A DNA stretch of 64,000 nt, from NCBI GenBank assembly GCA_951406725.2, contig OX597817.1, positions 124,124,001 to 124,188,000 of the forward strand, given 5' to 3'. The notes under the pieces were generated by a model. It saw only the letters and a program-made list of their open reading frames with translations, was not told where the DNA came from and did no database searches. Both the position numbers and the translations under genes were made by a program. This document shows positions 726-64,000 of the stretch, in pieces; the first letter of the stretch is position 1, and the number at the start of each line of letters is the position of its first letter. The stretch is from Octopus vulgaris (lineage: Eukaryota).

Positions 726-756
726 ATATACATATATATATATATATACATACAAT

Positions 757-993
757 AACGTAAGGTGTACTAGCCATCTGAATGTGGCTAGCCACTGGGG
801 GTGGGGGTGTTACTGATGCTTTTAGCCCCAGGTGATCAACATCACCAGATGGACTTTAGACACTATCTCAGTGCCCTTGTGTTATTTGCAAAGGGAGGTC
901 ATCCTCCTCGAAAACCTAAGTACTACATACGGACTATAGTTTCAAGGTAATTGCCTCTCGTCAACGCATGGTAAGCACCGGTCTTCGATGAAG
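757..993 (-). repeat. Partial hammerhead-repeat (retrozyme-like) monomer downstream of Tx1 copy 1
   Basis: Matches the 355-bp unit at 6518-6872. It begins on the minus strand with the target duplication at 976-993. Confidence 0.9.
926..970 (-). ncRNA. Type I hammerhead ribozyme motif (copy A)
   Basis: Minus strand reads CAUGCG-UUGACGA-GAGG caauua CCUU-GAA-AC uaua GU-C^-CGUAUG: stem I, core with C3U, stem II, GAAA, palindromic stem III, GUC cleavage triplet. Confidence 0.8.
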
Positions 994-1354
994 TTTTCTT
1001 TATTATGATCAATAGATCTAACATAGAATGGATACATTACAGGACAAAACAATTACAAAAATGCTATGCGAGTTCGAATGAAATTTTAAAAATTACAAAA
1101 TTAAAATTTTATGTCACTTGAACGAAAACTTGGCTTACTTTGCCTTGAAACGAAACCTTGGCTTACTTTTGCCTTTATCACGAGAACTTTTAGTGCGTAT
1201 GTTTTCTTTTCATTTCTTTTTTTTTATTATTAATTCTTTATTTTAAACAGTTATGTACAGTGAAAGGTAATGGGAGGTACCAGTTTCAATTTTGAACCCG
1301 GCAGCCTATAAATCCCAGCAGCTGATTTTTCTTTTCCTCGATGATTAAGCTGGG

Positions 1355-4300
1355 TTACTTCTCACCCACCTTTCTCATCACATCCTTCCAACGTTCCATA
1401 TACTCTTTCTGTGGCAGGCTCCTCTTCTCCAACCCCATCTTGCTCTTCAGATGATATCCGAAGTATTTTAACAAACCGGGGCCAGAGATAAAGGACCCTT
1501 TCACCAGACCTTCCACTCTAGTTCTCCATACACACTCTTTCAATACTGCCACCGTACAGTAAAAACAAGCCTTACCTTCCTTTGAGAGTCCAGTTGGCGG
1601 TATCATCTTAATCATAGATCCAGCCGACAGCTGTACTCGTCCCAGATGCGACAACACGTGTTCCACGTAACTTATCAAGCCTGACAGCTCCCGACATTGT
1701 ACAAAAGCGTGTTGAACGGTTTCATCGTCCAACCCACATCTTGGACACGTCGGTGGCACTGACATTCCGTGCCTGGATAACTTCTCGCGAACAGGTAATG
1801 CATTCCTATAGCACTGCCAGGTCAGGGATTTTTGGTAATTATCCAAATACCCCGGCCTGAAAGTCTTCTTAAACAGGTTGGAGAGTTGATCCTCATCGAA
1901 CCCCAGAGCCCTTCCTAGGACGTCGTCATTTTTCCTCCTACCAGCCCTTTATAGAACACCGAGGTGGTATTCCCGCTGCCGGCCTTACCCATCTTGTGGA
2001 TCAGCCAGAGTGCCTGTCGGCACTCCTTCTGCCATGAAGTCAGTTTACGTCCTTTAATGAGACCGGGTGTAAATCCCTCCATAGAGGCCGGTCGCGGGAA
2101 GAATTCCTCTGCCAGCGAACTCCACACCTTATCATCCTCCAGGTAACACCAGAGGTGTCTCAGCCTCAACGCATGCTTGCGCATCATTAGCCAAGGCATC
2201 CCCAGTCCACCCTTTAGCGGTTCCTGGCAACACACGGAGCGTCTCACAAGTGGCTTTCCTCCTTTCCACAAAAAGCGGAAAAGAAGTCGTTCCAACTTGT
2301 TTAACCACGAATCGGGGCAAGGCACGACGGTCAGGCGGTAGGTGACGACAGAGGCTATAAACATCTGTGCCACCTCCGCCCTCCCTTTCAAGGAAAGATG
2401 CCTTCCGGACCACTTCCGTACTATGGCATCCACCTTGCTCGTTACCTCGCTCCAATTCTTCTCCGTCTGGGAGTCTGGACCAAACCAGACTCCGAGCAAT
2501 TTAACAGGACCATCCGTCCAGTGTCCAACAACACTGGACGGTATCTGCTTGTTCCTCCAGGTGCCGAGGCGCAAACCGATGGACTTGTCCCTGTTAACTT
2601 TTGCCCCTGCCACCGCTTCGTATCTATGGAGAGCACCTACTACCCGAGGTAGCTGTGTTCCGTTGGACACGATGAGGGTGACGTCATCCGCATAGGCAGA
2701 AACAGACTTACCGCATCCGATTTCATTAGGGTTGCCTCCCAACTTCTCCAGCTTCCGCAGCAATGGCTCAAGAGCCAAAACATACAGGAGCGGGGACAAG
2801 GGGCACCCTTGACGAACTGAACGCTTGATCGAAAACGGCTCCGTTAGGTAACCGTTTATCTGGACTGTGGACTTGATGCCGCTGTACATAGCTGAGATCC
2901 ACCCGCAGAAGCCAGGGCCCAGCCCAGCCGCTTCGAGAACCGCCGCCAAGTACCGATGGTCCACCCTATCAAACGCTTTACTTTGGTCTAAATGGACCAA
3001 TGCCCCTCCTTTGCCGTCTAATTTCCCGACCCTATCTATAGTGTAGCGGAGAAGGTGAAGATTATCCTGGATCGACCTGCCTGGGATTGCACATGTCTGT
3101 GCCTTCCCGACAAGTTTCTTCACGACAGCCGTCAACCTTTTTGCTAACACCTTGGCCAAAATCTTAAACTCTACATTAAGTAGAGTTATGGGCCTGTAAT
3201 TACTAATACTGTCCCCCTTGCTCCGGGTCTTTCTGGACCAGCGTCACAACTCCCCGACTCACAGAGCTGGGAATCCTCCCATTCTGTTGCCAGTTTGCAT
3301 AGACGCTTGCCAGTATGTCCCCGAACAAGTCCGGCATACAACAATAAAATTCATAGGGTAGACCATCCAATCCCGGTGACTTTTCCCCGGCGCACTCGGC
3401 CATAACCCCTCTTACCTCTGCGGGAGAGATCGATCCTTCACAGCACTCCGCCTCACCTGCCGAGAGCCGAGGCCCACCAGCTAGGAAGTCCTTTAAGGTC
3501 TCCCCACGCTCGAGCGGGCTACCGCCCCCAAACAGCCGTGCGAAATGCTGGTGAAGGACCTTCTGCATCTCCTCCTGTCCATAGATCTTGCGGTCCTGCT
3601 CGTCAGTTAAGGACATAATACAGGACTTTTTGCCCTTCTGACTCTCCTCACGACGGGCCCATCCGGCAACGTTAATACCTTCTCGTTTTCCTGCACGTAA
3701 CTTTAGCTCTGACTCTACACCCCTCGTGCTTGGCGTTGAGGTGACGGTACAATACCGCTCTCGCTGCCAACACTCCGGATGCACAGCCAGATTCCATAGC
3801 CTCGTCTAAGTTCTTAACTAATTCGCCCTCTATTCTAGTCCTATCTAAACTTAGCTGCTTGCTAAATCTAATGGACTCCAAACGGATGGCTCTTTTGAGG
3901 GCGTGCCACCATCTATTATTAATGATGGTGCCACATAATGCCCTCTGTACTAATTCCTTAATCCGGGTACGGAAAGCTTCACAGGTCAAAATAGACTTGT
4001 TCATCTTCCAGTACCCGGGACCTTGTCTATGGCATTTATCTACATGTACCTCACACGTTACAAGTTTGTGATCCGTGTAAGGCACAACAGAGAATTGTGG
4101 ACAGCTAACACTATTCCTATCTCGTTCCTTAACAAATACTCTATCTATGTACGATCTGAGTGAGCCGTCGTTATTACTCCACGTCCACTGTGGAACGTTC
4201 GGCTCATCCAGTCGAAAACGGTCTACTAGATTAAAGCTCGCTAGTAGAGCCTTGAGGCCAGGATTCCCCTTCCTATCGCTCGAGCCTACACCATCCACCC

Positions 4301-4737
4301 GCGCATCGAGAATGGTGTTGAAATCCCCTACCAAGACTACCGTTTTGGACGTCACTAGAAAGTGCTCCAGTTCCCGATAAAAACCGGTCTGCCCACGTCC
4401 GTTAGGAGCGTAGACAGCCACCAACCTGAAGGACTGCTTACTCACGTGCGTCACATCTAGGACAACCAGCCTACCTTCTGGGTCCAAAAAGACAGTACTT
4501 ACCTGTAAGTCCAAGTTCTTCCCTGAAAAGAACTGCCACGCCTGCACCTCCCCCTCGGCTAGGAGAAATAAATTTCTCGTAACCATTGAGAAGTGGTGAG
4601 AACGCTTGCGGTCCCTTCATCTTGGACTCGGTAACAATAGCTACTTCGATTCTATGTGAAATGAGGTCGTCACGAAAACAAGCCTGTTTCCATTTCGATC
4701 CCATTCCACGCACATTTATACAACCTAACTTAATCAT
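1355..4737 (-). CDS. Tx1 ORF2p (APE endonuclease, reverse transcriptase, C-terminal CCHC), split by about four single-base indels
   Basis: ORF pieces 4471-4737, 3672-4586, 3203-3784, 1915-3159 and 1355-1846. Motifs INVRG, GDFN, YIDRVF, TDH, LDQSKAFDRV, RQGCPLSP, YADD, CPRC..ETVQHAFVQC. Confidence 0.9.
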
Positions 4738-4759
4738 CGAGAAAAAGAAAATTATTTAC

Positions 4760-6265
4760 TCACGGTTGCGAGAGGGAGCCTGACAGATTCTTTCTGCCTG
4801 TCTCCCCCCCACTCGCCGTTGCTGCTGGGTGTTTCACCGGCGTTGCCACCGGGCTCTGGGTTGGTGTGGCTGCCGGGCTAACGGGTAATTTCCCAGTTGT
4901 CACCTCCTGGGTGACATCCTTAATGAAGCCGGCTTTTACGTGGCTTTGTAAGGTTTTGTCTTTCCATCCTTCTTCGCCGACCCTTCCATATCGCCACTCC
5001 GCTTCCTTCTCGGTCGCTTTGTAGCACCTGATCAGCGTACTTGCTTTCACCCATGTTTCTACTCTCACGTTCTTTGTGGTGTATGCAATAATTTTTTCGT
5101 TGGGTTTAAACCCTTTTACAGTTGGGGGGTGGGGTTTGTTAAAGTGCTGGCCTATAAGTGTAGTACCGCCGGGGTGGGATTGGAGAATATTTTTAATTTG
5201 TTCGTCTGCGTTGTTTTTTTTTTTTGATACGGGTGGGGAGTCAGGGGTGATGGATTTTTCCTTTTGTTGGACACGTTCGTAAATTCCATGTCTTCTTGTT
5301 TATTTGTTTTTGTTGCATTATTTTCCTCATCCTTTCCTTTCTCATTTTGCATTTCGTTCTTGTCTTCCTCCTTTTTGGAGTTCGACCTGTTTATTTTTTC
5401 CTCCTTGTTTTCGCCAGCCGTTACTTTTTTCTCCACTTTGCTGCTTTCTGCGTTCTTCACAGCGTTTTGTGGGGGGGCGTTGCCCGCATTATTTTTTTTT
5501 GTGCAAACAGAGCGAACGTGGCCCTTTTGCCCGCACTTAAAACATCTGGGCCTGCGTCCTTCCACCGAAACTCGTATGGAGTGCCCCTCCCCCACGAAGA
5601 CTCTGTCTGGTAGGCTTTCCAACGTCGCATTTTCCGCCTGGATTATCATCTCCAGCTGCTGGCCTCTCCAGTGTTTTGCAATTTTTCTCTTCATACTTAA
5701 AATTGTCAATTTTGATTCAACATCAAAAATGACCGCTGTTGCCGCCCACATCACGTCGTAGCCCGTTGGTATATCTTCTAGGGTCACTTTTGCGGTTCTG
5801 CATCCTAAATATAAGGGTAGCAGTATTATACTCTCGTTTTTCAACGTTTGTGTCGAAATTTGCCTTGCTACTTCCGCCGTTTCAAAATGCGCCTCCACTG
5901 TAGCGCTTCTTGCACCTCGGTTGACATGACTAACTTTACTCCATATTGGAGCCATACACTTTTCGACCATTTCGTTTTTCACGTCGGTCATTCGTTTTTC
6001 CTTGATATTGTACACCCTGTAGGTGACCATTTTTTCCTTTATTGCTTGTATAGTTTCGGGGGCGGTACCAATCGTGTTTCTTCACCACTTTTTTGCACCA
6101 GCGATCTAAACTTGAATAATCTTTCCATTGATACCTCCATTTCTTCGACTTCGCCACCTACGGCGTCTGAAAAACTGGGTTTTGTCTGTGTTTCCTTTTG
6201 TTTAACAGTTGTTATACTTTCTCCCATCTCGGGAAAGTCTTTTTTGAACTTAAGTCTAATTCCAT
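4760..6265 (-). CDS. Tx1 ORF1p (gag-like, zinc knuckle), frameshifted
   Basis: ORF pieces 6039-6227, 5152-6030 and 4760-5068. CFKCGQKGHVRSVC (CX2CX4HX4C) is followed by a K/E/N-rich low-complexity region. Confidence 0.82.
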
Positions 6266-6517
6266 ATTAGACAACACAAACTTGTCACAAATGACAAGAG
6301 AATTTTTTTTTTCCAAAAATAACCTATACAGGTTAAGAGTTCACACAAAACAGCACACAGAAATTTTCTACCCCGAAGGGCGAAAATTACTGGGTCAAAA
6401 ACAGTTCAACAATGATATTACTTGTAACACGACAGAGTAGACAAACGGAAACGAACTCACACAACGATTTGCAGCAACAGAAAAATATTGGTATACACCG
6501 AGGAAAAATTCAAAAAA

Positions 6518-6944
6518 CACCGGTCTTCGATGAAGGAGTCCCCTTGCAAATAATATATAACGTTTTTCACAGCAACCACTGTCACTGATTTAGAAAAACT
6601 GTCTGAAAGCAATAATAAATCTCTGAACGAGATATAAACAGTAACCGCTCGACAACGTAAGGTGTACTAGCCATCTGAATGTGGCTAGCCACTGGGGGTG
6701 GGGTGTTACTGATGCTTTTAGCCCCAGGCGATCAACGTCACCAGATGGACTTTAGACACTATCTCAGTGCTCTTGTGTTATTTGCAAAGGGAGGTCATCC
6801 TCCCTCGAAGACCTAAGTACTACATACGGACTATAGTTTCAAGGTAATTGCCTCTCATTAACGCATGGTAAGCACCGGTCTTCGATGAAGGAGTCCCCTT
6901 GCAAATAATATATAACGTTTTTCACAGCAACCACTGTCACTGAT
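6518..6944 (-). repeat. Hammerhead-repeat array upstream of copy 1 (one 355-bp unit plus a partial unit)
   Basis: CACCGGTCTTCGATGAAG recurs at 6518 and 6873 (period 355). The site at 6873-6890 is an empty target. Confidence 0.9.
6823..6867 (-). ncRNA. Hammerhead motif copy B, core mutated (UUAAUGA)
   Basis: Same stems as the other copies, but G5 is replaced by A, so probably inactive. Confidence 0.65.
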
Positions 6945-7484
6945 AGCATCAGTAACACCCCACCCCAGCGGCTAGCCACATTCAGATGGCTAGTACACCT
7001 TACGTTGTCGAGCGGTTACTGTTTATATCTCATTCAGAGATTTATTATTGCTTTCAGACAGTTTTTCTAAATCAGTGACAGTGGTTGCTGTGAAAAACGT
7101 TATATATTATTTGCAAGGGGACTCCTTCATCGAAGACCGGTGCTTACCATGCGTTGACGAGAGGCAATTACCTTGAAACTATAGTCCGTATATAGTACTT
7201 AGGTCTTCGAGGGAAGATGGCAAATAACACTGAGCACTGAGATGTGTCTAAAGTCCATCTGGTGACGTTGATCGCCTGGGGCTAAAAGCATCAGTAACAC
7301 CCCACCCCCAGTGGCCCACATTCAGATGGCTAGTATACCTTACGTTGTTGAGCGGTTACTGTTTATATCTCGTTCAGAGATTTATTATTGCTTTCAGACA
7401 GTTTTTCTAAATCAGTGACAGTGGTTGCTGTGAAAAACGTTAAATATATTATTTGCAAGGGGACTCCTTCATCGAAGACCGGTG
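6945..7484 (+). repeat. Hammerhead-repeat array upstream of copy 2 (partial unit plus one ~342-bp unit with small deletions)
   Basis: CTTCATCGAAGACCGGTG occurs at 7125-7142 (empty site) and 7467-7484 (5' target duplication). Confidence 0.9.
7148..7192 (+). ncRNA. Type I hammerhead ribozyme motif (copy C)
   Basis: CATGCG 7148-53, TTGACGA 7154-60, GAGG-caatta-CCTT 7161-74, GAAAC-tata-GTC 7175-86, CGTATA 7187-92. Predicted cut after 7186. Confidence 0.78.
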
Positions 7485-7735
7485 TTTTTTGAATTTTCCT
7501 CGGTGTATACCAATATTTTTCTGTTGCTGCAAATCGTTGTGTGAGTTCGTTTCCGTTTGTCTACTCTGTCGTGTTACAAGTAATATCATTGTTGAACTGT
7601 TTTTGACCCAGTAATTTTCGCCCTTCGGGGTAGAAAATTTCTGTGTGCTGTTTTGTGTGAACTCTTAACCTGTATAGGTTATTTTTGGAAAAAAAAAATT
7701 CTCTTGTCATTTGTGACAAGTTTGTGTTGTCTAAT

Positions 7736-9248
7736 ATGGAATTAGACTTAAGTTCAAAAAAAGACTTTCCCGAGATGGGAGAAAGTATAACAACTGTTAA
7801 ACAAAAGGAAACACAGACAAAACCCAGTTTTTCAGACGCCGTAGGTGGCGAAGTCGAAGAAATGGAGGTATCAATGGAAAGATTATTCAAGTTTAGATCG
7901 CTGGTGCAAAAAAGTGGTGAAGAAACACGATTGGTACCGCCCCCGAAACTATACAAGCAATAAAGGAAAAAATGGTCACCTACAGGGTGTACAATATCAA
8001 GGAAAAACGAATGACCGACGTGAAAAACGAAATGGTCGAAAAGTGTATGGCTCCAATATGGAGTAAAGTTAGTCATGTCAACCGAGGTGCAAGAAGCGCT
8101 ACAGTGGAGGCGCATTTTGAAACGGCGGAAGTAGCAAGGCAAATTTCGACACAAACGTTGAAAAACGAGAGTATAATACTGCTACCCTTATATTTAGGAT
8201 GCAGAACCGCAAAAGTGACCCTAGAAGATATACCAACGGGCTACGACGTGATGTGGGCGGCAACAGCGGTCATTTTTGATGTTGAATCAAAATTGACAAT
8301 TTTAAGTATGAAGAGAAAATTGCAAAACACTGGAGAGGCCAGCAGCTGGAGATGATAATCCAGGCGGAAAATGCGACGTTGGAAAGCCTACCAGACAGAG
8401 TCTTCGTGGGGGAGGGGCACTCCATACGAGTTTCGGTGGAAGGACGCAGGCCCAGATGTTTTAAGTGCGGGCAAAAGGGCCACGTTCGCTCTGTTTGCAC
8501 AAAAAAAAATAATGCGGGCAACGCCCCCCCACAAAACGCTGTGAAGAACGCAGAAGCAGCAAAGTGGAGAAAAAAGTAACGGCTGGCGAAAACAAGGAGG
8601 AAAAAATAAACAGGTCGAACTCCAAAAAGGAGGAAGACAAGAACGAAATGCAAAATGAGAAAGGAAAGGATGAGGAAAATAATGCAACAAAAACAAATAA
8701 ACAAGAAGACATGGAATTTACGAACGTGTCCAACAAAAGGAAAATATCCATCACCCCTGACTCCCCACCCGTATCAAAAAAAAAACAACGCAGACGAACA
8801 AATTAAAAATATTCTCCAATCCCACCCCGGCGGTACTACACTTATAGGCCAGCACTTTAACAAACCCCACCCCCCAACTGTAAAAGGGTTTAAACCCAAC
8901 GAAAAAATTATTGCATACACCACAAAGAACGTGAGAGTAGAAACATGGGTGAAAGCAAGTACGCTGATCAGGTGCTACAAAGCGACCGAGAAGGAAGCGG
9001 AGTGGCGATATGGAAGGGTCGGCGAAGAAGGATGGAAAGACAAAACCTTACAAAGCCACGTAAAAGCCGGCTTCATTAAGGATGTCACCCAGGAGGTGAC
9101 AACTGGGAAATTACCCGTTAGCCCGGCAGCCACACCAACCCAGAGCCCGGTGGCAACGCCGGTGAAACACCCAGCAGCAACGGCGAGTGGGGGGGGGGGG
9201 AGACAGGCAGAAAGAATCTGTCAGGCTCCCTCTCGCAACCGTGAGTAA
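7736..9248 (+). CDS. Tx1 ORF1p (zinc knuckle), frameshifted
   Basis: ATG at 7736. ORF pieces 7685-7963, 7972-8355, 8352-8579, 8564-8806 and 8655-9248. CX2CX4HX4C knuckle. Confidence 0.82.
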
Positions 9249-9267
9249 ATAATTTTCTTTTTTCTCG

Positions 9268-12200
9268 ATGATTAAGTTAGGTTGTATAAATGTGCGTGGA
9301 ATGGGATCGAAATGGAAACAGGCTTGTTTTCGTGACGACCTCATTTCACATAGAATCGAAGTAGCTATTGTTACCGAGTCCAAGATGAAGGGACCGCAAG
9401 CGTTCTCACCACTTCTCAATGGTTACGAGAAATTTATTTCTCCTAGCCGAGGGGGAGGTGCAGGCGTGGCAGTTCTTTTCAGGAAGAACTTGGACTTACA
9501 GGTAAGTACTGTCTTTTTGGACCCAGAAGGTAGGCTGGTTGTCCTAGATGTGACGCACGTGAGTAAGCAGTCCTTCAGGTTGGTGGCTGTCTACGCTCCT
9601 AACGGACGTGGGCAGACCGGTTTTTATCGGGAACTGGAGCACTTTCTAGTGACGTCCAAAACGGTAGTCTTGGTAGGGGATTTCAACACCATTCTCGATG
9701 CGCGGGTGGATGGTGTAGGCTCGAGCGATAGGAAGGGGAATCCTGGCCTCAAGGCTCTACTAGCGAGCTTTAATCTAGTAGACCGTTTTCGACTGGATGA
9801 GCCGAACGTTCCACAGTGGACGTGGAGTAATAACGACGGCTCACTCAGATCGTACATAGATAGAGTATTTGTTAAGGAACGAGATAGGAATAGTGTTAGC
9901 TGTCCACAATTCTCTGTTGTGCCTTACACGGATCACAAACTTGTAACGTGTGAGGTACATGTAGATAAATGCCATAGACAAGGTCCCGGGTACTGGAAGA
10001 TGAACAAGTCTATTTTGACCTGTGAAGCTTTCCGTACCCGGATTAAGGAATTAGTACAGAGGGCATTATGTGGCACCATCATTAATAATAGATGGTGGCA
10101 CGCCCTCAAAAGAGCCATCCGTTTGGAGTCCATTAGATTTAGCAAGCAGCTAAGTTTAGATAGGACTAGAATAGAGGGCGAATTAGTTAAGAACTTAGAC
10201 GAGGCTATGGAATCTGGCTGTGCATCCGGAGTGTTGGCAGCGAGAGCGGTATTGTACCGTCACCTCAACGCCAAGCACGAGGGGTGTAGAGTCAGAGCTA
10301 AGTTACGTGCAGGAAAACGAGAAGGTATTAACGTTGCCGGATGGGCCCGTCGTGAGGAGAGTCAGAAGGGCAAAAAGTCCTGTATTATGTCCTTAACTGA
10401 CGAGCAGGACCGCAAGATCTATGGACAGGAGGAGATGCAGAAGGTCCTTCACCAGCATTTCGCACGGCTGTTTGGGGGCGGTGCCCGCTCGAGCGTGGGG
10501 AGACCTTAAAGGACTTCCTAGCTGGTGGGCCTCGGCTCTCGGCAGGTGTGGCGGAGTGCTGTGAAGGATCGATCTCTCCCGCAGAGGTAAGAGGGGTTAT
10601 GGCCGAGTGCGCCGGGGAAAAGTCACCGGGATTGGATGGTCTACCCTATGAATTTTATTGTTGTATGCCGGACTTGTTCGGGGACATACTGGCAAGCGTC
10701 TATGCAAACTGGCAACAGAATGGGAGGATTCCCAGCTCTGTGAGTCGGGGAGTTGTGACGCTGGTCCAGAAAGACCCGAGCAAGGGGGACAGTATTAGTA
10801 ATTACAGGCCCATAACTCTACTTAATGTAGAGTTTAAGATTTTGGCCAAGGTGTTAGCAAAAAGGTTGACGGCTGTCGTGAAGAAACTTGTCGGGAAGGC
10901 ACAGACATGTGCAATCCCAGGCAGGTCGATCCAGGATAATCTTCACCTTCTCCGCTACACTATAGATAGGGTCGGGAAATTAGACGGCAAAGGAGGGGCA
11001 TTGGTCCATTTAGACCAAAGTAAAGCGTTTGATAGGGTGGACCATCGGTACTTGGCGGCGGTTCTCGAAGCGGCTGGGCTGGGCCCTGGCTTCTGCGGGT
11101 GGATCTCAGCTATGTACAGCGGCATCAAGTCCACAGTCCAGATAAACGGTTACCTAACGGAGCCGTTTTCGATCAAGCGTTCAGTTCGTCAAGGGTGCCC
11201 CTTGTCCCCGCTCCTGTATGTTTTGGCTCTTGAGCCATTGCTGCGGAAGCTGGAGAAGTTGGGAGGCAACCCTAATGAAATCGGATGCGGTAAGTCTGTT
11301 TCTGCCTATGCGGATGACGTCACCCTCATCGTGTCCAACGGAACACAGCTACCTCGGGTAGTAGGTGCTCTCCATAGATACGAAGCGGTGGCAGGGGCAA
11401 AAGTTAACAGGGACAAGTCCATCGGTTTGCGCCTCGGCACCTGGAGGAACAAGCAGATACCGTCCAGTGTTGTTGGACACTGGACGGATGGTCCTGTTAA
11501 ATTGCTCGGAGTCTGGTTTGGTCCAGACTCCCAGACGGAGAAGAATTGGAGCGAGGTAACGAGCAAGGTGGATGCCATAGTACGGAAGTGGTCCGGAAGG
11601 CATCTTTCCTTGAAAGGGAGGGCGGAGGTGGCACAGATGTTTATAGCCTCTGTCGTCACCTACCGCCTGACCGTCGTGCCTTGCCCCGATTCGTGGTTAA
11701 ACAAGTTGGAACGACTTCTTTTCCGCTTTTTGTGGAAAGGAGGAAAGCCACTTGTGAGACGCTCCGTGTGTTGCCAGGAACCGCTAAAGGGTGGACTGGG
11801 GATGCCTTGGCTAATGATGCGCAAGCATGCGTTGAGGCTGAGACACCTCTGGTGTTACCTGGAGGATGATAAGGTGTGGAGTTCGCTGGCAGAGGAATTC
11901 TTCCCGCGACCGGCCTCTATGGAGGGATTTACACCCGGTCTCATTAAAGGACGTAAACTGACTTCATGGCAGAAGGAGTGCCGACAGGCACTCTGGCTGA
12001 TCCACAAGATGGGTAAGGCCGGCAGCGGGAATACCACCTCGGTGTTCTATAAAGGGCTGGTAGGAGGAAAAAATGACGACGTCCTAGGAAGGGCTCTGGG
12101 GTTCGATGAGGATCAACTCTCCAACCTGTTTAAGAAGACTTTCAGGCCGGGGTATTTGGATAATTACCAAAAATCCCTGACCTGGCAGTGCTATAGGAAT

Positions 12201-12656
12201 GCATTACCTGTTCGCGAGAAGTTATCCAGGCACGGAATGTCAGTGCCACCGACGTGTCCAAGATGTGGGTTGGACGATGAAACCGTTCAACACGCTTTTG
12301 TACAATGTCGGGAGCTGTCAGGCTTGATAAGTTACGTGGAACACGTGTTGTCGCATCTGGGACGAGTACAGCTGTCGGCTGGATCTATGATTAAGATGAT
12401 ACCGCCAACTGGACTCTCAAAGGAAGGTAAGGCTTGTTTTTACTGTACGGTGGCAGTATTGAAAGAGTGTGTATGGAGAACTAGAGTGGAAGGTCTGGTG
12501 AAAGGGTCCTTTATCTCTGGCCCCGGTTTGTTAAAATACTTCGGATATCATCTGAAGAGCAAGATGGGGTTGGAGAAGAGGAGCCTGCCACAGAAAGAGT
12601 ATATGGAACGTTGGAAGGATGTGATGAGAAAGGTGGGTGAGAGTAACCCAGCTTAA
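9268..12656 (+). CDS. Tx1 ORF2p (APE + RT + CCHC), one single-base frameshift near 10492
   Basis: ORFs 9268-10509 and 10548-12656. Copy 1 has an extra A (GGTAGCCCG) that would join them into about 1129 aa. Confidence 0.92.
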
Positions 12657-13007
12657 TCATCGAGGAAAAGAAAAATCAGCTGCTGGGATTTATAGGCTGC
12701 CGGGTTCAAAATTGAAACTGGTACCTCCCATTACCTTTCACTGTACATAACTGTTTAAAATAAAGAATAATAATAAAAAAAAAAGAAATGAAAAGAAAAC
12801 ATACGCACTAAAAGTTCTCGTGATAAAGGCAAAAGTAAGCCAAGGTTTCGTTTCAAGGCAAAGTAAGCCAAGTTTTCGTTCAAGTGACATAAAATTTTAA
12901 TTTTGTAATTTTTAAAATTTCATTCGAACTCGCATAGCATTTTTGTAATTGTTTTGTCCTGTAATGTATCCATTCTATGTTAGATCTATTGATCATAATA
13001 AAGAAAA

Positions 13008-13244
13008 TTTCATCGAAGACCGGTGTTTACCATACGTTGACGAGAGGCAATTACCTTGAAACTATAGTCCGTATGTAGTACTTAGGTTTTCGAGGGAGGA
13101 TGACCTCCCTTTACAAATAACACAAGGGCACTGAGATAGTGTCTAAAGTCCATCTGGTGACGTTGATCGCCTGGGGCTAAAAGCATCAGTAACACCCCAC
13201 CCCCAGTGGCTAGCAACATTCAGATGGCTAGTACACCTTACATT
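13008..13244 (+). repeat. Partial hammerhead-repeat monomer downstream of Tx1 copy 2
   Basis: Starts with the target duplication and ends at ...GTACACCTTACATT, the same point in the monomer as the opposite arm. Confidence 0.9.
13031..13075 (+). ncRNA. Type I hammerhead ribozyme motif (copy D)
   Basis: CATACG/CGTATG perfect stem I, TTGACGA core, GAGG-caatta-CCTT, GAAAC-tata-GTC. Predicted cut after 13069. Confidence 0.8.
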
Positions 13245-13929
13245 ATATTTACATTGTTTTTTACATAAAACCAACATAAATATTACTGTTGTAAAACAAA
13301 CTCTAAAATGATATAGTATATTTGTCTCTGTCATTGTTTCCTTTTAGCTAATTTTTCTCTGAAATTCCTGATTAAGAAGCATTTAGCTTTATTGTTTTTA
13401 TTTATTTTTATGTTAGTGTTGCTATTTAACTGTGGATCAACCTTGATTGTGCTGGTCATTAATCCAACGATTTCCAACTATGGGTAACATATCCTTCCTG
13501 TGCATTTCTTACCTAGAAGCATCTTATCCAGTATGTTACAGCCTCCTTTGTAAGACACCAAGATTTAATATAAAAGAGGTTTGACTGCTATTTTTAGCAT
13601 GTCAGAGAAAGATGTAGAACAGTTACGAGCATCCTATTGCCCACAAACCACATACAGCCTGCATAACTTTCTGTATGGCATGTCTCATGAAAGACTACCC
13701 TGAATTATTTTAATAGTGCAGCTCACCTGGTGTTGAGCCAAGCCTTATGCGATCAACTTCTTGATTACCCTCATTTTTAAGTCTTCCCTAACTACTAGTA
13801 AGCTGTCTGACTGGACTGATGCACATTGTCTGTCACTGGTGTTATACTACATCTATGGCTAAATCAGGGTCATCTATCTTAACTATATGAGTACACTGGG
13901 TTTAGGGTAAAAAGATAAAGTTACGTTCT

Positions 13930-41444: not shown

Positions 41445-42723
41445 ATGTTTTGGGAACATGGCTAACACTCAAATTGACACCTAAACATTCTGAAATATTC
41501 ATATTGGAGCTTCTGGCATGACTGCCAAGCAGTACAGCATGTCATTTCCACATTTCTGGCAGAGTGAATTGCATCATGGTGCTGAATGTCTCATAGATGG
41601 TGCCCAACTACCCCTACCATGCAGCGTAGTTGACAAGCCCAAAAATAAACAATGCGCATGTGGGAAATCACAATGGTGACAATTTACCCTGTATATATAT
41701 AAATGTATTTCATGTTATTTGCACTGTTGGTGATGTCCTGTATCCATATATATGCATGTATATATACATACATGCATACATACATATATATATATACGAC
41801 GGGCTTCTTTCAGTTTCCTTCAACTAAATCCACTCACAAAGCTTTGGTCAGCCTGAAGCTATAATAAAAGACACATGCCCAAGGTGCCACATAGTGGGAT
41901 TGAACCTGGAACCATGTGGTTGAGAAGTAAGCTTCTTACCACACAGCCACACCTGCATACAAAAAAAAATATATATATATATAACTGGCTTCTAGCAATT
42001 TGGGTTTAAATCCTGCTGAAACCAACTTTGACTTTCATTCTCTCTCCCCTCTTTCCTCCTCTTCATATCTCCCTCTCCCTCATCTTTCCCTCTCTTCTTC
42101 ATCCCCTTATCCAATTCTCCCTTTTCCTCCTTCAATCTCTCCCTCCCTCATACTTCCACCCTCTCCTTATCTCTCCCCACTTCTCTCATTCTGACTTTAA
42201 ACCCTGCTGACACCAACTCTTTACATTTTATCCTAACAAGATTGATAGATAAAGATTTTAGCCAGGATTGATGAAGCCTTCCCTGCTTCCAGTTGTTTAC
42301 ATCCTAGATATTCTGTTAGGTCAAAAGGGTGGCAGGACTTAGAAAATCTCTGTATCTGCTCTTGACTACCTGGGCATTAAAAACCGTTAGCCTACATAAT
42401 ACATGCTTCCAACTAATCTTTGATTGCACTTGGCAGCTGTAGAATTTTCATCCTTCTGATGCAACATGTTACATAAATGCAATTGTTATTGAGCCTTTAT
42501 CGAACTAATAGACATACTTCAGCCATTAGAATGTGGCCATGCTGGGGCACCACCTTGATTTTTTTTTAGTGCTACTTTTTTTTTTAAAACCTGGCACTTA
42601 TTCTATCATTTTCTTTTGCCAAGTCGCTAAGTTATGGGAACATAAATATCAGTTGTCAAGTGGTAGAGGCAGGGACAAACACAGACACACACACAAAATA
42701 CATAAATACATACACACACACAC

Positions 42724-42769
<46 letters not shown>

Positions 42770-42953
42770 GTAAAATATGAAAAATCAACGAAAATGCATA
42801 TTGCAAATAGAAAAAGGCTATTTATGACAGGTAACAACAAATATATACATTTAGATTGACAGAGGTGGGTGGTAATACAAGTCATAAAGGTCATTATTAT
42901 GAGATGATTATAAGATGATAAAGTAAGAGAACAAAACGAACCAACGGTTTACG

Positions 42954-42995
<42 letters not shown>

Positions 42996-44912
42996 GAGGC
43001 ACATGGCCTAGTGGTTAGAGCAGCGGACTCGTGGTTGAGGGATCATGGTTTCGAATCTCAGACTGGGCGATGTGCGTATTTATGAGCGAAACGTCTAAAC
43101 TCCACGTGCCTCCAGCAGAAGGTGATGGTGAACTTCTGCTGACTCTTTCACCACAACTTTCTCTCACTCTTTCCTCCTGGATCTTGCAGCTCTTCTGGAT
43201 GCTCTACCCATTTATGTTGATATATGTTGCCATAATCCTTTCCTTCAGTTCATCTTTGGTGTTGTTAAGAAGTTTTGTCGGTCTCTAACTCAACTGCACC
43301 CTACACATAATAATCAAGGGGATTGCAGTCAAGGGAGTCAGGTGACCAGATGTTAGGGGTGATGTGGTTGCAGAAATTGTCTGACAGCCATGACTAGGTT
43401 CTGCTGTTAGTGTAGCATTGTGCAGCGTGCTGTTGTCAGACATAAGGTCTTCCAGCAGCAACCCTCTTGACCCAGGAAAGCACTACCTCCTCCAGGAACT
43501 TGGGGTAGGCCTCCGTGTCAAGTTTAAGGCCATGTGAGAAGATGAATGGAGCCATAATGTCAACATAACTAGTGATCACTCCAAACACCCTGATGTTGAC
43601 TGGATGTTTGATTTTCATCACTCTTGGTACATGTTTTGGGAACATGGCTAACACTCAAATTGACACCTAAACATTCTGAAATATTCATATTGGAGCTTCT
43701 GGCATGACTGCCAAGCAGTACAGCATGTCATTTCCACATTTCTGGCAGAGTGAATTGCATCATGGTGCTGAATGTCTCATAGATGGTGCCCAACTACCCC
43801 TACCATGCAGCGTAGTTGACAAGCCCAAAAATAAACAATGCGCATGTGGGAAATCACAATGGTGACAATTTACCCTGTATATATATAAATGTATTTCATG
43901 TTATTTGCACTGTTGGTGATGTCCTGTATCCATATATATGCATGTATATATACATACATGCATACATACATATATATATATACGACGGGCTTCTTTCAGT
44001 TTCCTTCAACTAAATCCACTCACAAAGCTTTGGTCAGCCTGAAGCTATAATAAAAGACACATGCCCAAGGTGCCACATAGTGGGATTGAACCTGGAACCA
44101 TGTGGTTGAGAAGTAAGCTTCTTACCACACAGCCACACCTGCATACAAAAAAATATATATATATATATATATAACTGGCTTCTAGCAATTTGGGTTTAAA
44201 TCCTGCTGAAACCAACTTTGACTTTCATTCTCTCTCCCCTCTTTCCTCCTCTTCATATCTCCCTCTCCCTCATCTTTCCCTCTCTTCTTCATCCCCTTAT
44301 CCAATTCTCCCTTTTCCTCCTTCAATCTCTCCCTCCCTCATACTTCCACCCTCTCCTTATCTCTCCCCACTTCTCTCATTCTGACTTTAAACCCTGCTGA
44401 CACCAACTCTTTACATTTTATCCTAACAAGATTGATAGATAAAGATTTTAGCCAGGATTGATGAAGCCTTCCCTGCTTCCAGTTGTTTACATCCTAAATA
44501 TTCTGTTAGGTCAAGGGTGGCAGGACTTAGAAAATCTCTGTATCTGCTCTTGACTACCTGGGCATTAAAAACCGTTAGCCTACATAATACATGCTTCCAA
44601 CTAATCTTTGATTGCACTTGGCAGCTGTAGAATTTTCATCCTTCTGATGCAACATGTTACATAAATGCAATTGTTATTGAGCCTTTATCGAACTAATAGA
44701 CATACTTCAGCCATTAGAATGTGGCCATGCTGGGGCACCACCTTGATTTTTTTTTAGTGCTACTTTTTTTTTTTAAAACCTGGCACTTATTCTATCATTT
44801 TCTTTTGCCAAGTCGCTAAGTTATGGGAACATAAATATCAGTTGTCAAGTGGTAGAGGCAGGGACAAACACAGACACACACACAAAATACATAAATACAT
44901 ACACACACACAC

Positions 44913-44956
<44 letters not shown>

Positions 44957-45140
44957 GTAAAATATGAAAAATCAACGAAAATGCATATTGCAAATAGAAA
45001 AAGGCTATTTATGACAGGTAACAACAAATATATACATTTAGATTGACAGAGGTGGGTGGTAATACAAGTCATAAAGGTCATTATTATGAGATGATTATAA
45101 GATGATAAAGTAAGAGAACAAAACGAACCAACGGTTTACG

Positions 45141-45190
<50 letters not shown>

Positions 45191-52251: not shown

Positions 52252-52323
52252 TTTCCACACCAGGAATTGAGCCAGGGCCACCTAGGTGAAAGCCAGGAAT
52301 CCTAACCTCTAAACCACATGGGA
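52252..52323 (-). pseudogene. tRNA-Glu (TTC) pseudogene
   Basis: Minus strand TCCCATGTGGTTTAGAGGTTAGGATTCCTGGCTTTCACCTAGGTGGCCCTGGCTCAATTCCTGGTGTGGAAA resembles metazoan tRNA-Glu but has a broken B-box/T-loop and stem mismatches. Confidence 0.8.
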
Positions 52324-57344: not shown

Positions 57345-58020
57345 TGATAAATTCCTAGAAAAGAATTATCCACTGTCCTTAATTGAATTACAGAATACAA
57401 CAAGCCAAGCATACAACATCCAGGAACTAAAGCAAGCAAAAACAGAAAATATTCCCACCTATCCTAAAATCAGTGAGGCATAAAACATCATATTCCAAAC
57501 GAAATCAATGCTGAAAAAGGGCCCCAGGATGAACGAAATCCTTAAAAAATATACGATGATAAGTAAAAGTAAAAGACAGTTCAAATCAATGAAAACAATA
57601 CAAACAACAACTAAACTTCCCCCAATAATAACAGATCCAACAGCAAAAATATGTCAAAGATCCAAATGTGGTATATGCTTAAATCCGGACAAGGATTGGA
57701 GATCTATTTTAAACCAGAACAACCCGTCATAATAAAAATAATTTCACTTCTGTCTCTGAAAACTTAATCTATGCAATTAAATCTTCAAGACGTAGGGATA
57801 ACCACCACTTAGGGGAGACCAGAACCTCCCTTAAGACAATGCATGTGAATCACAAATTAAGATACCGAAATATAGACAAATAAGACTCCATGAACATATA
57901 AACATGTGTGCAGGTAGGAAACAAACAAATTTTGCAATTTTCCCTTTATAATAATTTGGCAATTGCGCAATACAACAGAAATCCATCAACAAATAAAACT
58001 TTTATAAATACTAACCACAT
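57345..58020 (+). mobile_element. Penelope-like element remnant (linker and GIY-YIG endonuclease)
   Basis: KICQRSKCGICL (Cys linker), then across frameshifts ENLIYAI...HLGETRTSL and PKYRQ..HEHINMCA...FAIFP. Confidence 0.7.
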
Positions 58021-59494: not shown

Positions 59495-62300
59495 CATCAT
59501 TATCATGTAACGTCCGTTTTCCAAACTGATCTGGGTTGGACGGCTTGACAGGGGCTGGCAAGCCAGGAGGCTGCACCAGGCTCCAATCTTATCTGGCAAG
59601 GTTTCTACAGCTGGATGGCCTTCCTAATGCCAACCACTCCAAGAGTGTAGTGGGTGCTTTTCACATGCCATTGGCATGGGAGCCAGCTAAGCTGCACTGG
59701 CATTGGCCACATTCAGGTGGTGCTATTTAGGTATCACCATCACAGGAGCCAGTTGGCATGGGGTGGCTGACATCGACCACTTTCAGATGGTGATTTTCAT
59801 GTGCCACCAGCATGGGGAGCCTGTCAGGAGGCACTGGCTTTGACCCACACATGAATGGTGCTTAGTGCATCAGCTAACTACAATATCCATTTTGAGTTCG
59901 ATTTGACTGAGATTCTGTTTGGGATTTTGATTTTACTTGACTCAATAGGTCTTCTCAAGCAAGGTGTGTCCCCTGACAAGTCAAAGGTATTTTTTAAATG
60001 AGCTGGTTATGCGACACTGGTATAGGCTATGTCTGTGATCTCACTTTACTTGCCGAGTCTTCTCAATTACTGCATATCTCCAAAGGTCTTGGTCTCTTGT
60101 CATTGCCACTGTGAGGCCCAACGTTTGAATGTCATGCTTCACCACCTCATCCCATGTCTTCCTGGGTCTCCCTCTTTCACAGGTTCCTTCCAATGTTAGG
60201 GAGAGACACTTCTTCACACAGCTGTCCTCATCCGTACACAGGACATGCCCATATCAGTGGAGTTGTCTTTCTTGTATACCACATCCGATGCTTCTTATGG
60301 CCAACATTTCTCCCAGGGCGCTTCCACTCTGTTGTGTATGCACAATGACATTGCACATACAGTGGATCATACTAGCTTCATTTCTTTCACACCTACATAA
60401 ATCCACAACAGTTATGGCCCATATTTCACTACTGTGTAGAATGGCCGTTCGCACACATGAATCATTCAATCTACCTTTCACTCTGAATGAGAGGCCCTTT
60501 GTCACCAGCAGAGGTAGGAGCTTTCTGAACTTTGCCCAGGCTATTCTTATTCTAGTTCTGGTAGTGATTCAGCTATGAGAGAAAGGTCATCAGCATAGAG
60601 GAGCTCCAAGAAGCAACCTGTCTTGAATATTCATTCCCACTACAGACTTGGTCACCTAGGTAGCAGAAGTTATCAACTACTTCTAGTTTCTCCCCCTGGT
60701 ATGTGATGGAATCTGTTTTTTGAACATCTTTGGTGTTTATTGCCCCCTGTACATTTGCCGTACACAAAAACTATTTTCCCAGTTAACCTTCCTTTGATGT
60801 TGCTGAACCTCTTATGTATCCATAGCTTACACTGAGTACATCTTATTGAGTTTCTACCTTCACCTTTTCTACAGATTGAGCAGGGCCTTTTCCCTGAAGG
60901 GGTTTGTGATTTGTTTGCCTTCCTACTTACTAGGACTTCGGTTTTTGCTACATTGACTCTAAGGCCCTTCGATTCTAGACTGTGCTTCCACACATGAAAT
61001 TTCATCTCTAGTTCTGGTAGTGATTCAGCTATGAGAGCAAGGTCATCAGCATAGAGGAGCTCCCAGAGGCAACCTGTCTTGAATTCCTCTGTTATTGCCT
61101 GTAGGACTATGATGAATAAGAGTAGACTGAGGACCCCTACTTCTACCCGAAACTCTTCACTGAACTATTTGCTGACCCTTACTTTACTGACAGCATCCCT
61201 GTACATGGGTTGTACAACTCTTACTAACCTCTTGTCTATCCCTAGTTTCCGCATCACCCACCAGATAAGAGATTGAGGGACCCTCTCAAAGGCTTTCTCC
61301 AAGTCAACAAAAGCCAAGTATAAGGGTTTATCTTTGGCTAGGTATTTTTCCTGCAGTTGCTGTACCAGAAATATAGCATCAGTAGTGCTTCTACCTGGCA
61401 CAAAACCGAACTGCATCTCATCTATGTTGATTCTCTCCCTAATTAGTTAGGCTATGACCCTCTCTGTGAACTTCATCACCTGCTCCAGCAATTTGGTACC
61501 CCTGTAATTATTTCTATCTAAAACATCACCTTTGCCTTTGTAGCAGTTGACTATGGTGCTGCTTCACCAGTCATTGGGTATCACTTCTTAATGAACTACC
61601 TGATTTACAATACGAGTGACTAGAACATAACCCATACTACCAAATATTTTAAGCATCTCAGCAGTGATTCCTGATGGGCTAGGGGCTTTTCCTGAGTTCC
61701 TATCCTTAATTGCTTTATCTACCAGGGTGCTATTCATTTGAGTAGTTGGTCTATCAACTGGGTTAATATTTGGCAGGCTCTCCTCCTCCCATTCATTTTC
61801 CACATTCAGCAGCCTTTCATAATAGTATCTCCAAGCCTCTTTCTTTGCAAAATCATTAAAAGTAAGTGCACCATCATCCATGCAGACACATTTCTCTCCT
61901 GTAACATCACAATTTTCTCTCTCACACTGTCTTGCAATTCGAAATACTTCAGTTCTTTGGTCGTCACGTCACTGAATATTGGCAAACTTCTTTTCTGCTT
62001 CTTCCTTGGCTATATATACCTGTCTTCCAGCCTCCCTTCTGGCTATCTGGTAAAGTTCCCTGCTACCCTAACTCTTCCAGGTTTTACAAGCGTGTTTCTT
62101 TGCTCTGATGGCCTTGTCTACAGTATTATTCCACCACCACTTTACCCTAGGTCTGGAAGGGACTTTGCACCAGTCACAGATTTGGTCTGTGGTGCTTAGT
62201 AAGCTGTTACGTAGGAATTTCCAGTTACCCTCTATGGAGCATACACTAGAAAGGAAAGTGTTGTTGAAGAGGTCACAGATGTGTGACAAAAGATTTCTGG
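59495..62300 (-). mobile_element. 5'-truncated decayed RTE-clade LINE with 3' UTR and tail
   Basis: WWWN, GKAPSPSGI, MQFGFVPGRSTTDAIF, AFVDLEKAF, LLYADD, KGLRVNVAKT, and the PCSICRK..SIRCTQCKLWIHK zinc-finger insert. Confidence 0.9.
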
Positions 62301-62544: not shown

Positions 62545-64000
62545 CTAGCAGAGCCACCTGGCGTTGCCCAAGAATGAAATTTTTCCTTACATATTAGAAG
62601 AAAAGAGGAAAATATGTTGTAGAGAAATTTGTTATTCTAAATTCAATTTATTCTTCAATTGGGATACTATTTATTCTTTAAATTGGGAAATCAATTCTGA
62701 ATTTATAATACAAATTATTATATACGAAAATACAAAATTTACCACTTTTATAAAAGGAGATAAATTCTACCACATATGTTGAAGGAAATTATGTGAGAGT
62801 TTCTGGGTAAACAACATTCCTTGTTTTCTGGTTTGGAGCATAGACAAAGTTGACCATGAGAAAAGCAAGCCAGTAGATTTCAAAGACTAACCTTGCGCTT
62901 TATTAATAGACATTGCAAAGCAAAGTCACATTGGGAATTGTGTTCATTTGAATTCAAAGTGCATGTCTGTTGGTTTTATTGGAATTCTTGGAACGAAAAC
63001 CTTTTCCCCAGACACATCCAGAGATGATGGTAGTTCTTATCACATTAAGTGATAATGTCTTCACAATCAAACTTATCCCATTGCATAATTTAGGAGGATC
63101 TAAATTTGTTAGAAGCATTATTGGAACTTCTGCCTTCAGAAAAATTTTATGTGGAGGAATTCCAGGTGGCTCAAGAGAATTAAGGAACTCTGTTGGGTAA
63201 TGGACAGCTTGATTTTCATCAAGGACTGAATCAACTGATTTGTACTTCTTAATGACTATTGGAATTTTATGCATTAATTCATGAAGAATTTTTGCTACTG
63301 TTTCATTTTTTGGAGTAAGAATTACTCTTTCACACAACCATGTTTGTGGATCATAATTACTACCTAAGTCTGGCAATATCCTGTTCTTCAGTTCAGCTGA
63401 AGAATTCACCATGATAGCAATATGAGCCAAATTGACATCACCATTCCCATCAAATGGTACTTTCCCATTCCCTAATTGGCGGAGCCAGGTTGAAAACCGT
63501 TTTGCACATTGGTTCCCATGTAATGAAGCTCACACGCTAGTATTGAAAGAGGATTTCAATACTTTATTCCATAGGTGTGAAGACTTAATGCATGCTTTTA
63601 TTTCATCAGATCTTGTTCATCTCAGAATGAGTGGTAATGTCTGTCTCAAGTCTCCTGATAAAAGTGATGTAACTCCTCCCATAGATTTATTGTTGCCTCT
63701 GATGTCCTGTAAGGTCTTACTAAGATATGGTGCATTCATCCCAAATGATAGGTGGCATTGGCACAACACTTCTGCTGAAGCTAAACCTTTGCTAATGTTA
63801 CAAATTAGATTACCTTGTGACCATGTTTAGTGGTAATTTAAAAGCAGAATGAGCTGTTCGTCCTCCTGGGAGAATGCTGACAACAAAGCCAGACAATGGT
63901 ACAGCAACTGCAATTTCTCTTTTGTTGTCTTACATTGGAGAGAAGCAACGTTACAAATGTTTTACCTGTGTCACCAGGAATATCAAGAAACATCTGCTTT
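62545..64000 (-). mobile_element. Helitron 3' portion (Pif1 helicase pseudogene), continues past the window
   Basis: ORF 62954-63430 has VILTPKNE, YPTEFLNSLEPPGIPPH, PIMLLTNLDPPKLCNG. 3' end GGGCAACGCCAGG..CTAG|T. Confidence 0.9.

Follow-up and report, generated by a model that had tools for sequence, protein, structure and literature searches.

The stretch of DNA analysed here, referred to as the window, covers 64,000 nucleotides of the Octopus vulgaris genome (assembly GCA_951406725.2, contig OX597817.1, positions 124,124,001 to 124,188,000) and contains two copies of a long interspersed nuclear element (LINE) inserted in a retrozyme, a 355-bp repeat with a hammerhead ribozyme motif. This LINE reuses one spot of ribozyme repeats and the start of U2 genes, and its relatives the start of U1 genes, behind the same upstream motif, which suggests that it lives by taking small-RNA promoters. 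It is probably a young, target-specific APE-type LINE of the L1/Tx1 group, living on RNA polymerase II (Pol II) promoters of the small nuclear RNA (snRNA) type. Target-specific LINEs, as well as LINEs nested in other transposons, are already known. In the literature searched, most subscription journals and Repbase lying outside it, no LINE lineage was found at snRNA-type start sites common to spliceosomal genes and retrozymes; the target table of PMC4494074 (Fig. 3; source available in part) and Repbase entries could list a similar target.

The genome searched comprises 2.8 Gb in 227 contigs; the labels of loci (L) and contigs (C) and the names of the retrozyme families (A to H) are our own. 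In the search for LINE 3' ends, 40 of 216 candidates were scored, and the exact 3'-end pattern of the young family was found at 26 places. Nineteen of these occupy one and the same hammerhead-repeat site (three of them assigned through a tandem neighbour), five at the start of a U2 gene, identified at the adjoining places by a match to RF00004, and two elsewhere (L018 and L161). A preference for a multicopy target is recognized when it accounts for more than 20% of the flanks (PMC4494074; this source and all those cited below were available in part); here, retrozyme or U2 sites hold 24 of the 26 3' ends. Among 24 copies read at both ends, 22 are flanked by a duplication of 16-19 bp, without mismatch in 15 of the 22. 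Two 5'-truncated copies also occupy the target site, L016 with the duplication at both ends and L066 with the duplication at the 5' junction. Private variants are present on both sides of the duplication in L131 and in the truncated L016, which is expected of genuine duplications.

Copies of the LINE within ~0.5% of each other stand in retrozyme A, in retrozyme B (70-77% like A) and in U2, and hence represent separate insertions that were not carried along with a flank. An earlier note on the window, made from its letters only, had proposed that the LINE targets a hammerhead-bearing retrozyme. This is confirmed for one site at many independent loci, 5'-truncated copies included, and the copies with unrelated 3' flanks that would have spoken against it amount, genome-wide, to only 2 of 26. 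The retrozyme is not the sole target, however, since the starts of U2 and U1 and unlike 17-mers are also used.

The relatives of the young family extend this pattern. Older subfamilies, ~85-91% identical, sit in families D and H. In a sister family, 16 of the 17 5' junctions sampled are in the site of family G, which is a hammerhead repeat too, and one is in nucleotides 1-17 of U1; moreover, one sister-type 3' end abuts nucleotide 1 of an intact U1 gene in a U1 cluster. The subfamilies sort by target, and the targets of related subfamilies are mostly alike. No LINE 3' end was matched at the first transcribed nucleotide (+1) of U5 in this genome, which has 26 U5 matches, and no member of the lineage stands directly before the 15 U1 and 12 U5 genes examined.

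The promoters of the spliceosomal genes offer a common denominator for these sites. The sequence ATCAGT occurs at -57 to -61 in 15 of 15 U1, 28 of 30 U2, 11 of 12 U5 and 0 of 10 U6 loci (the best 15 of 42 U1, 30 of 48 U2, 12 of 26 U5 and 10 of 48 U6 matches). One of the U2 hits reads ATTAGT, and the two U2 misses are LINE-interrupted loci. ATCAGT is read as the putative core of the proximal sequence element, a label of our own. At the LINE junctions, ATCAGY is located 70-77 bases upstream in 35 of the 42 outermost 5' junctions, compared with 91 of 20,000 random stretches in the control. This exact-motif test leaves out 13 G-family sites and includes three off-target or rearranged copies; the seven misses are L122 (a deletion brings the motif to -64), L134 (variant), L155 (absent), L018, L161, L169 and L173. 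In the G sites with native flank, a variant of the motif is the best weight-matrix hit at -74 in 13 of 13. The distance from motif to LINE is 73 bases in U2, 71-76 in the retrozymes and 74 in the G family. In the window, ATCAGTG is visible 74 bases before the right LINE (7411-7417, plus strand) and 72 bases before the left one (6583-6589, minus strand).

When the snRNA spacing is carried over to the retrozyme, +1 falls on the A of ATCG in the target. As far as the motif goes, the retrozyme possesses an upstream element at the spacing of U1, U2 and U5. In an alignment at the cut, 9-16 bases are identical among the targets (17-mers) of A, B, C and U2; U2 and B have 11 of 17 in common, and U1 and D 9 of 17, but G and U1 only 5, A and U1 4, and D and G 3. 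Across all families, the shared feature of the targets looks like a position behind the snRNA upstream motif, and not the 17-mer or the retrozyme itself. Dispersed U2 copies on many contigs keep a near-identical promoter and 3' flank (L100-L102, L106, L108-L110, L113 and L119), which indicates that they spread as DNA and not as processed copies.

Several other elements accompany the LINE. A 1.6-kb family codes only for a 440-aa ORF1-like protein (ORF, open reading frame; 27-34% like the LINE ORF1), has a LINE-like 3' end and occupies the same sites. It is often in tandem with the LINE and reaches the A2, B, D, D2 and U2 sites, with one copy at U2 +1 on C7 (L137, L139, L141, L142, L148, L150, L154, L164 and L315/L317). 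Further full LINE families, with 80-89% protein identity in the reverse transcriptase (RT), are stacked in tandem at the retrozyme site (L132 6490-9900, L135 6806-9900 and L136 1-3084). L144 and L146, ~270 kb apart on C16, are a duplicated segment in which an integrase-bearing element of the long terminal repeat (LTR) type lies inside an older LINE copy. In the spacers of the U2 cluster on C3 (L094, L095 and L120), distant ORF1-like fragments (33-42%) are present.

The composite in the window (755-13246) is an inverted and tandem array of the 355-bp hammerhead retrozyme, a non-autonomous element of Penelope type, with two LINE insertions. The repeat had been described in the earlier note as a tandem one: the 355-bp unit stands, but not a plain tandem array, since 755-6944 and 7071-13246 form an inverted pair with 99.1% identity, which turns at 6944/6945. 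The outer ends are both at unit position ~219, with a (TA)n tract on the left side. The two 5.5-kb LINEs are placed head to head, the left copy on the minus strand (994-6517) and the right copy on the plus strand (7485-13007). In each, ORF1 codes for a weak zinc knuckle and ORF2 for APE, RT and zf-RVT domains (Pfam); both copies are frameshifted in the assembly through homopolymer indels. The right copy has a T run at its start and AATAAAGAAAA at its end, without a poly(A) tail. Its ORF1 (7736-9248, plus strand; zinc knuckle slightly below the Pfam cut-off) corresponds to 503 aa in one frame in copy L130, and its ORF2 (9268-12656, plus strand) to 1129 aa, open in copy L121. An equally young LINE copy on C24 has an open ORF2 of 1129 aa. 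Given the open ORF2 and the near-identical copies, the LINE is probably active now or was so recently.

Both LINEs stand at the identical site of the repeat, and all six 17-18-mers are where the earlier note had placed them. The left duplication does measure 18 bp, with its 3' part at 976-993 and its 5' part, which holds the putative +1, at 6518-6535 (both on the minus strand). For the right copy, the 18-bp limits had to be corrected: base 13008 is a T in place of the C of the target, and the duplication is therefore of 17 bp, 7468-7484 at the 5' side, with the putative +1 at 7471, and 13009-13025 at the 3' side (both on the plus strand).

The caveat that the two copies might derive from one insertion, later duplicated, is largely answered by two places on C2 (L062 and L063), where the same composite is found with the same inversion point and without LINE. 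Furthermore, the left outer unit of the window and the left unit of L062 show no substitution, whereas the two outer units of the window differ by seven. Since the LINE-free composites share the inversion point and the arms keep their own variants, the composite appears to be older than the LINEs in it; the simplest account of these is that a single donor inserted twice, once in each arm. A single duplicated insertion, the first reading of the window, was dropped once the empty composites had been seen. An alignment of the two LINEs shows a single clear substitution, 21 gap columns and, within a T-rich tract, a shift of 3 bases. This small divergence leaves some room, for the window only, for one insertion having been copied to the other arm by gene conversion, Penelope-type re-mobilisation or assembly error, a course of events that we regard as possible but unlikely. 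The LINE is present in only 2 of the 22 closest retrozyme loci, window included, so that two in one composite are unexpected, and homopolymer indels are numerous in the assembly, which also shows a gap at 578-676. Copying, however, has to face the empty composites and the variants retained by each arm, as well as a 3' junction base that differs between the arms (C vs. T). The C24 copy, moreover, is equally close to both window copies, and one active donor accounts for their identity.

The repeat has a type I hammerhead, whose helices count 6, 4 and 3 pairs and whose loop 3 is palindromic. In a set of 14 hammerhead sequences picked by the analyst, 95.4% of 174 cells are paired and 30 two-sided changes are present; none of 500 shuffles, which ignore relatedness, reaches this value, and slid controls give 12-48%. 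Rfam detected no hammerhead, either at the gathering score or at E up to 10, and minimum-energy folding of single sequences did not yield the fold. The hammerhead announced in the earlier note therefore rests on the motif and on covariation across diverged repeat families; on these grounds, with Rfam negative, the repeat has the type I hammerhead per 150-450-bp unit that characterizes non-LTR retrozymes. The core is CUGANGA in four of the 14 sequences, U3-A8 in two, U3-G8 in two (that of the window included) and otherwise changed in six; U3-A8 is a natural covariant (PMC4209133). With cores as varied as these, self-cleavage of many retrozyme copies is predicted at best. Four hammerheads are located in the composite. 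The one downstream of the right LINE (13031-13075, plus strand) has its core at 13037-13043 and is predicted to cut after 13069, at a distance of 62 bases from the end of the LINE; its counterpart downstream of the left LINE is at 926-970 (minus strand). The inner right unit has one at 7148-7192 (plus strand), behind the empty site 7125-7142, and the inner left unit one at 6823-6867 (minus strand), behind the empty site 6873-6890, whose core is altered at G5 and which is probably inactive.

The first search with the retrozyme unit gave 2857 candidates, and the 30 best unit matches correspond to 22 distinct loci. Inverted parts are present in 15 of these, 18 end at unit position ~219 or ~266, and 15 run into TA tracts; no 17-bp duplication was seen at the retrozyme's own ends in the 22 loci. 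Tandem and inverted copies, a fixed 3' end with a one-sided tail, and microsatellite targets are those of a non-autonomous element of Penelope type; for Penelope-like elements, insertion into microsatellites, inversion of 5' copies and a tail confined to one end have been described (10.1101/2021.04.23.441226). Such an end structure agrees with the view, already put forward, of animal retrozymes as Penelope derivatives that are not autonomous. That the host might be a DNA transposon, as it is for Tx1 in Xenopus, was considered and discarded because of the Penelope-like ends. ORFs with Penelope-type RT and GIY-YIG domains were noticed beside retrozyme arrays (L171 1717-3972 and L172 3125-5026). 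No pseudo-LTR (pLTR) matching the retrozyme was found at the ends of these two neighbouring ORFs of Penelope-like elements, and no genome-wide search was made for one.

Of the two roles considered for the LINE in the earlier note, parasite of the retrozyme or RT partner that mobilises it, only that of the parasite is borne out, since the repeat itself moves like a Penelope-type element. The physical association of the two is close, and ORF2 is open in some copies. Nevertheless, the inverted parts, fixed ends and TA tracts of the retrozyme, without a 17-bp duplication, the presence of Penelope-type RT/GIY-YIG ORFs in the genome and a LINE 3' end that is not shared by the retrozyme make such a partnership very improbable.

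Traces of the LINE RNA are visible in copies that have changed target. All four full-length copies inserted in U2 have 14 bases between the U2 duplication and the LINE, and these match the family B target from the predicted +1 A. In a relative located outside the U1 cluster, the head consists of U1 1-17 and the tail of six U1 bases. Such heads, the first 14-17 bases of the old target, fit what is expected from transcription by the host promoter. Copy L121 is near-identical to the window copies, yet has two mismatches in its duplication, one side of which therefore probably came from the donor RNA. In L134, whose two duplications differ, the 3' flank consists of retrozyme sequence up to the precise point of the hammerhead cut, where another element takes over. 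Around locus position ~3105 of L134, the retrozyme flank joins a 5'-truncated copy of the ORF1-only family, possibly through a template jump onto a ribozyme-cut RNA end. Although few, these events fit a start at the host +1 and read-through into the downstream target.

These elements can be assembled into a putative life cycle. Retrozyme units would carry a promoter of the U1/U2 type, with +1 inside the LINE target. The endonuclease would nick at about -3 and the second strand would be cut at about +14 (for the older subfamilies, the two positions would be +1 and +17). Through the upstream duplicate, the LINE would then stay connected to both the promoter and +1; the host RNA sequence would remain complete, but without its promoter. 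The LINE RNA would start at the host +1 with a head of 14-17 host bases and extend through the LINE to the downstream duplicate; there, ~60 bases beyond the end of the LINE, it may be cut by the hammerhead. The tail of the RNA, matching the target, together with a loosely specific endonuclease, would steer the next insertion to a like site; for R1Bm, downstream target sequence is reported to be necessary for accurate priming (PMC7265360). Only copies behind a promoter would become donors, and the retrozyme, moved by a Penelope-like element, would merely be host to the LINE. Three factors would thus probably act together in the choice of site: an endonuclease of loose specificity, pairing through the read-through tail, and selection for promoter-bearing donors.

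A number of observations weigh against this interpretation. Some insertions are off target: L161, L169 and L018, the last of which has a perfect 16-bp duplication but lacks the motif. L018 and L169 are in or beside what we take to be an abundant tRNA-derived short interspersed nuclear element (SINE), which may be chance. Guidance by sequence alone is a poor fit for the unlike targets of some close relatives, as G and U1 share 5 of 17 bases and A and U1 4 of 17, with an endonuclease loop that has hardly changed. The upstream motif is only 6-7 bases long, and the 35 junctions that contain it are not independent, because the retrozyme families are related; the unrelated classes are the retrozyme, U2 and U1. 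Among the U1 junctions read, no copy has the native promoter joined to the 5' end of the LINE, and the spacing is therefore derived indirectly there; a presumed 5' end of the U1-adjacent copy L228 and a presumed 3' end at L230 were looked for and not found. The four U2 heads probably descend from one donor, and the U1 head could also be produced by template switching onto snRNA, as discussed for the heads of SINEU (PMC4494074). The window hammerhead has the non-canonical core UUGACGA (U3-G8), and a helix III as short as this is reported to make a hammerhead dependent on dimers (PMC4209133). Lastly, transcription start, transcript and ribozyme cleavage are all deduced from sequence.

The low similarity between targets is better accommodated by tethering, in which the ORF1 or ORF2 protein would bind the snRNA promoter complex (the snRNA-activating protein complex, SNAPc, or its partners) and the endonuclease would cut at a set distance. 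The equal spacing in non-homologous hosts (-73 in U2, -71 to -76 in the retrozymes, -74 in the G family) argues for it, as do the 5 of 17 bases shared by the sister-subfamily targets G and U1 and the wide reach of the ORF1-only element, to the A2, B, D, D2 and U2 sites. The hairpin loop of the endonuclease is near-identical across subfamilies and has the length of that of L1, two residues shorter than the Tx1L loop. A precedent exists in TRE5-A ORF1 and TFIIIB (PMC5006619), and tethering, which can be likened to TRE5-A and to Ty3 with TFIIIB, can coexist with a tail-guided step. Still, each subfamily stays with one class of targets and does not spread to every promoter of this kind, no LINE 3' junction was matched at U5 +1, and an off-promoter copy sits on a site beginning like U1 (L105/L229). 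We therefore hold tethering to be an unlikely, if serious, alternative. A bolder proposal is that the lineage finds its sites through SNAPc and not through DNA sequence, cuts across the +1 of U1, U2 and retrozyme promoters, and obtains its capped start from the promoter and its 3' end from the hammerhead. We consider it doubtful; if true, it would represent a Pol II counterpart of Ty3/TRE5 targeting, turn invertebrate retrozymes into snRNA-type transcription units and give a simple origin to the U1/U2 heads on LINEs and SINEs.

At the opposite end, the retrozyme motif might be no working promoter, and the LINE an ordinary sequence-specific one whose retrozyme target resembles the first bases of U2/U1, for instance after the past capture of an snRNA 5' region. 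The motif is indeed short, TTYATCG, as well as GG at +11/+12, is common to the targets in A, B, C and U2, and L105/L229 and L161 match the target sequence without a visible motif. However, the motif spacing is kept across families that share only 3-7 of 17 target bases, and the heads begin where the spacing predicts, which makes this explanation improbable. The life on snRNA-type promoters outlined above, with site choice by endonuclease, RNA tail and donor selection, is therefore preferred.

The window contains a few other features. Two tRNA matches are located at 31418-31491 (plus strand) and 52252-52323 (minus strand), the second one weak. An RT-like piece without Pfam match (237-575) precedes the gap at 578-676. 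Remnants comprise a GIY-YIG piece (57850-58017) and, among 60673-61164 and 62954-63529, an RT piece and a Pif1 helicase piece. Short repeats at 42056-45181 reappear in the same form 2190 bases further on, which points to a local duplication of 2.2 kb.

The LINE junctions mark a candidate promoter and start site of animal retrozymes; in the newt, satellite 2 reportedly has an snRNA-type promoter. They also document a change of target by a LINE, with near-identical copies in retrozyme A, retrozyme B and U2 and the previous target as head. The question of transcription-factor guidance of a metazoan LINE is thereby raised, and recent or present activity makes this element open to assay.

By its organization, the octopus LINE is a member of the L1 group: it possesses ORF1 and an ORF2 with APE, RT and a C-terminal zinc motif (Pfam), and the PDB search gave E 1e-62 for L1 ORF2 vs. 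1e-25 for R2. Target-site duplications and 5'-truncated copies are present, as in APE-type non-LTR elements. The closest proteins in the searches, with 59% and ~40% identity, are unnamed, and no named Tx1 sequence was among the matches. The LINE probably belongs to Tx1 in the wide sense. The top metagenome matches include Keno-type elements, with 28-30% identity, and the deep nodes of the RT tree (FastTree) are weak. Of 80 metagenome loci, six hold Keno-type elements, identified from their U2 junctions (L235-L237, L242, L243 and L246); in this tree they form a separate supported branch. This separate branch and the U2 junctions at -3/+14 rule out that the LINE is Keno itself. Among the metagenome contigs, L246 has a short U2 head and L239 a head of U1 1-31.

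Elements reduced to the first ORF are known as HAL1 (half-L1). The 1.6-kb companion family resembles them in having only an ORF1-like protein and a LINE-like 3' end but differs from HAL1 in using the targeted site of the full LINE, with which it forms tandem stacks. With Keno, the octopus LINE has in common the APE-type organization, two ORFs, insertion in U2 genes with a duplication, and tandems (PMC4640811, PMC4494074). Keno and Utopia, on the contrary, break U2 at about nucleotide 38-39 (PMC4640811, PMC4494074), whereas the octopus LINE duplicates -3 to +14, leaves the U2 sequence whole and has most of its copies in retrozymes. Tx1L of Xenopus and Tx1-Mar of crocodilians are likewise LINEs nested at a fixed site of a non-autonomous mobile element (PMC4494074). 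Their hosts are DNA transposons (piggyBac and Mariner), while the octopus host is an RNA-based hammerhead element used at a putative snRNA-type start, and the endonuclease loop is shorter than that of Tx1L.

The host repeat itself resembles the animal non-LTR retrozymes and the pLTR hammerheads of Penelope-like elements, with ~350-bp units in tandem and inverted copies (PMC7229834, PMC4209133, 10.64898/2026.07.22.740005). The likeness extends to the type I hammerhead, with a 6-bp helix I, a 4-bp helix II, a short palindromic helix III and the U3-A8 variant; the parts of the sources available make no reference, for these elements, to a promoter motif of the snRNA type or to a dedicated LINE parasite. 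A set distance from a small-RNA promoter, with differing target sequences, is also the rule for TRE5-A and TRE3 of Dictyostelium and Ty3 of yeast (PMC5006619). In comparison, those microbial elements use Pol III genes and TFIIIB, and the octopus LINE putative Pol II promoters of the snRNA type in an animal, where tethering would be a hypothetical counterpart.

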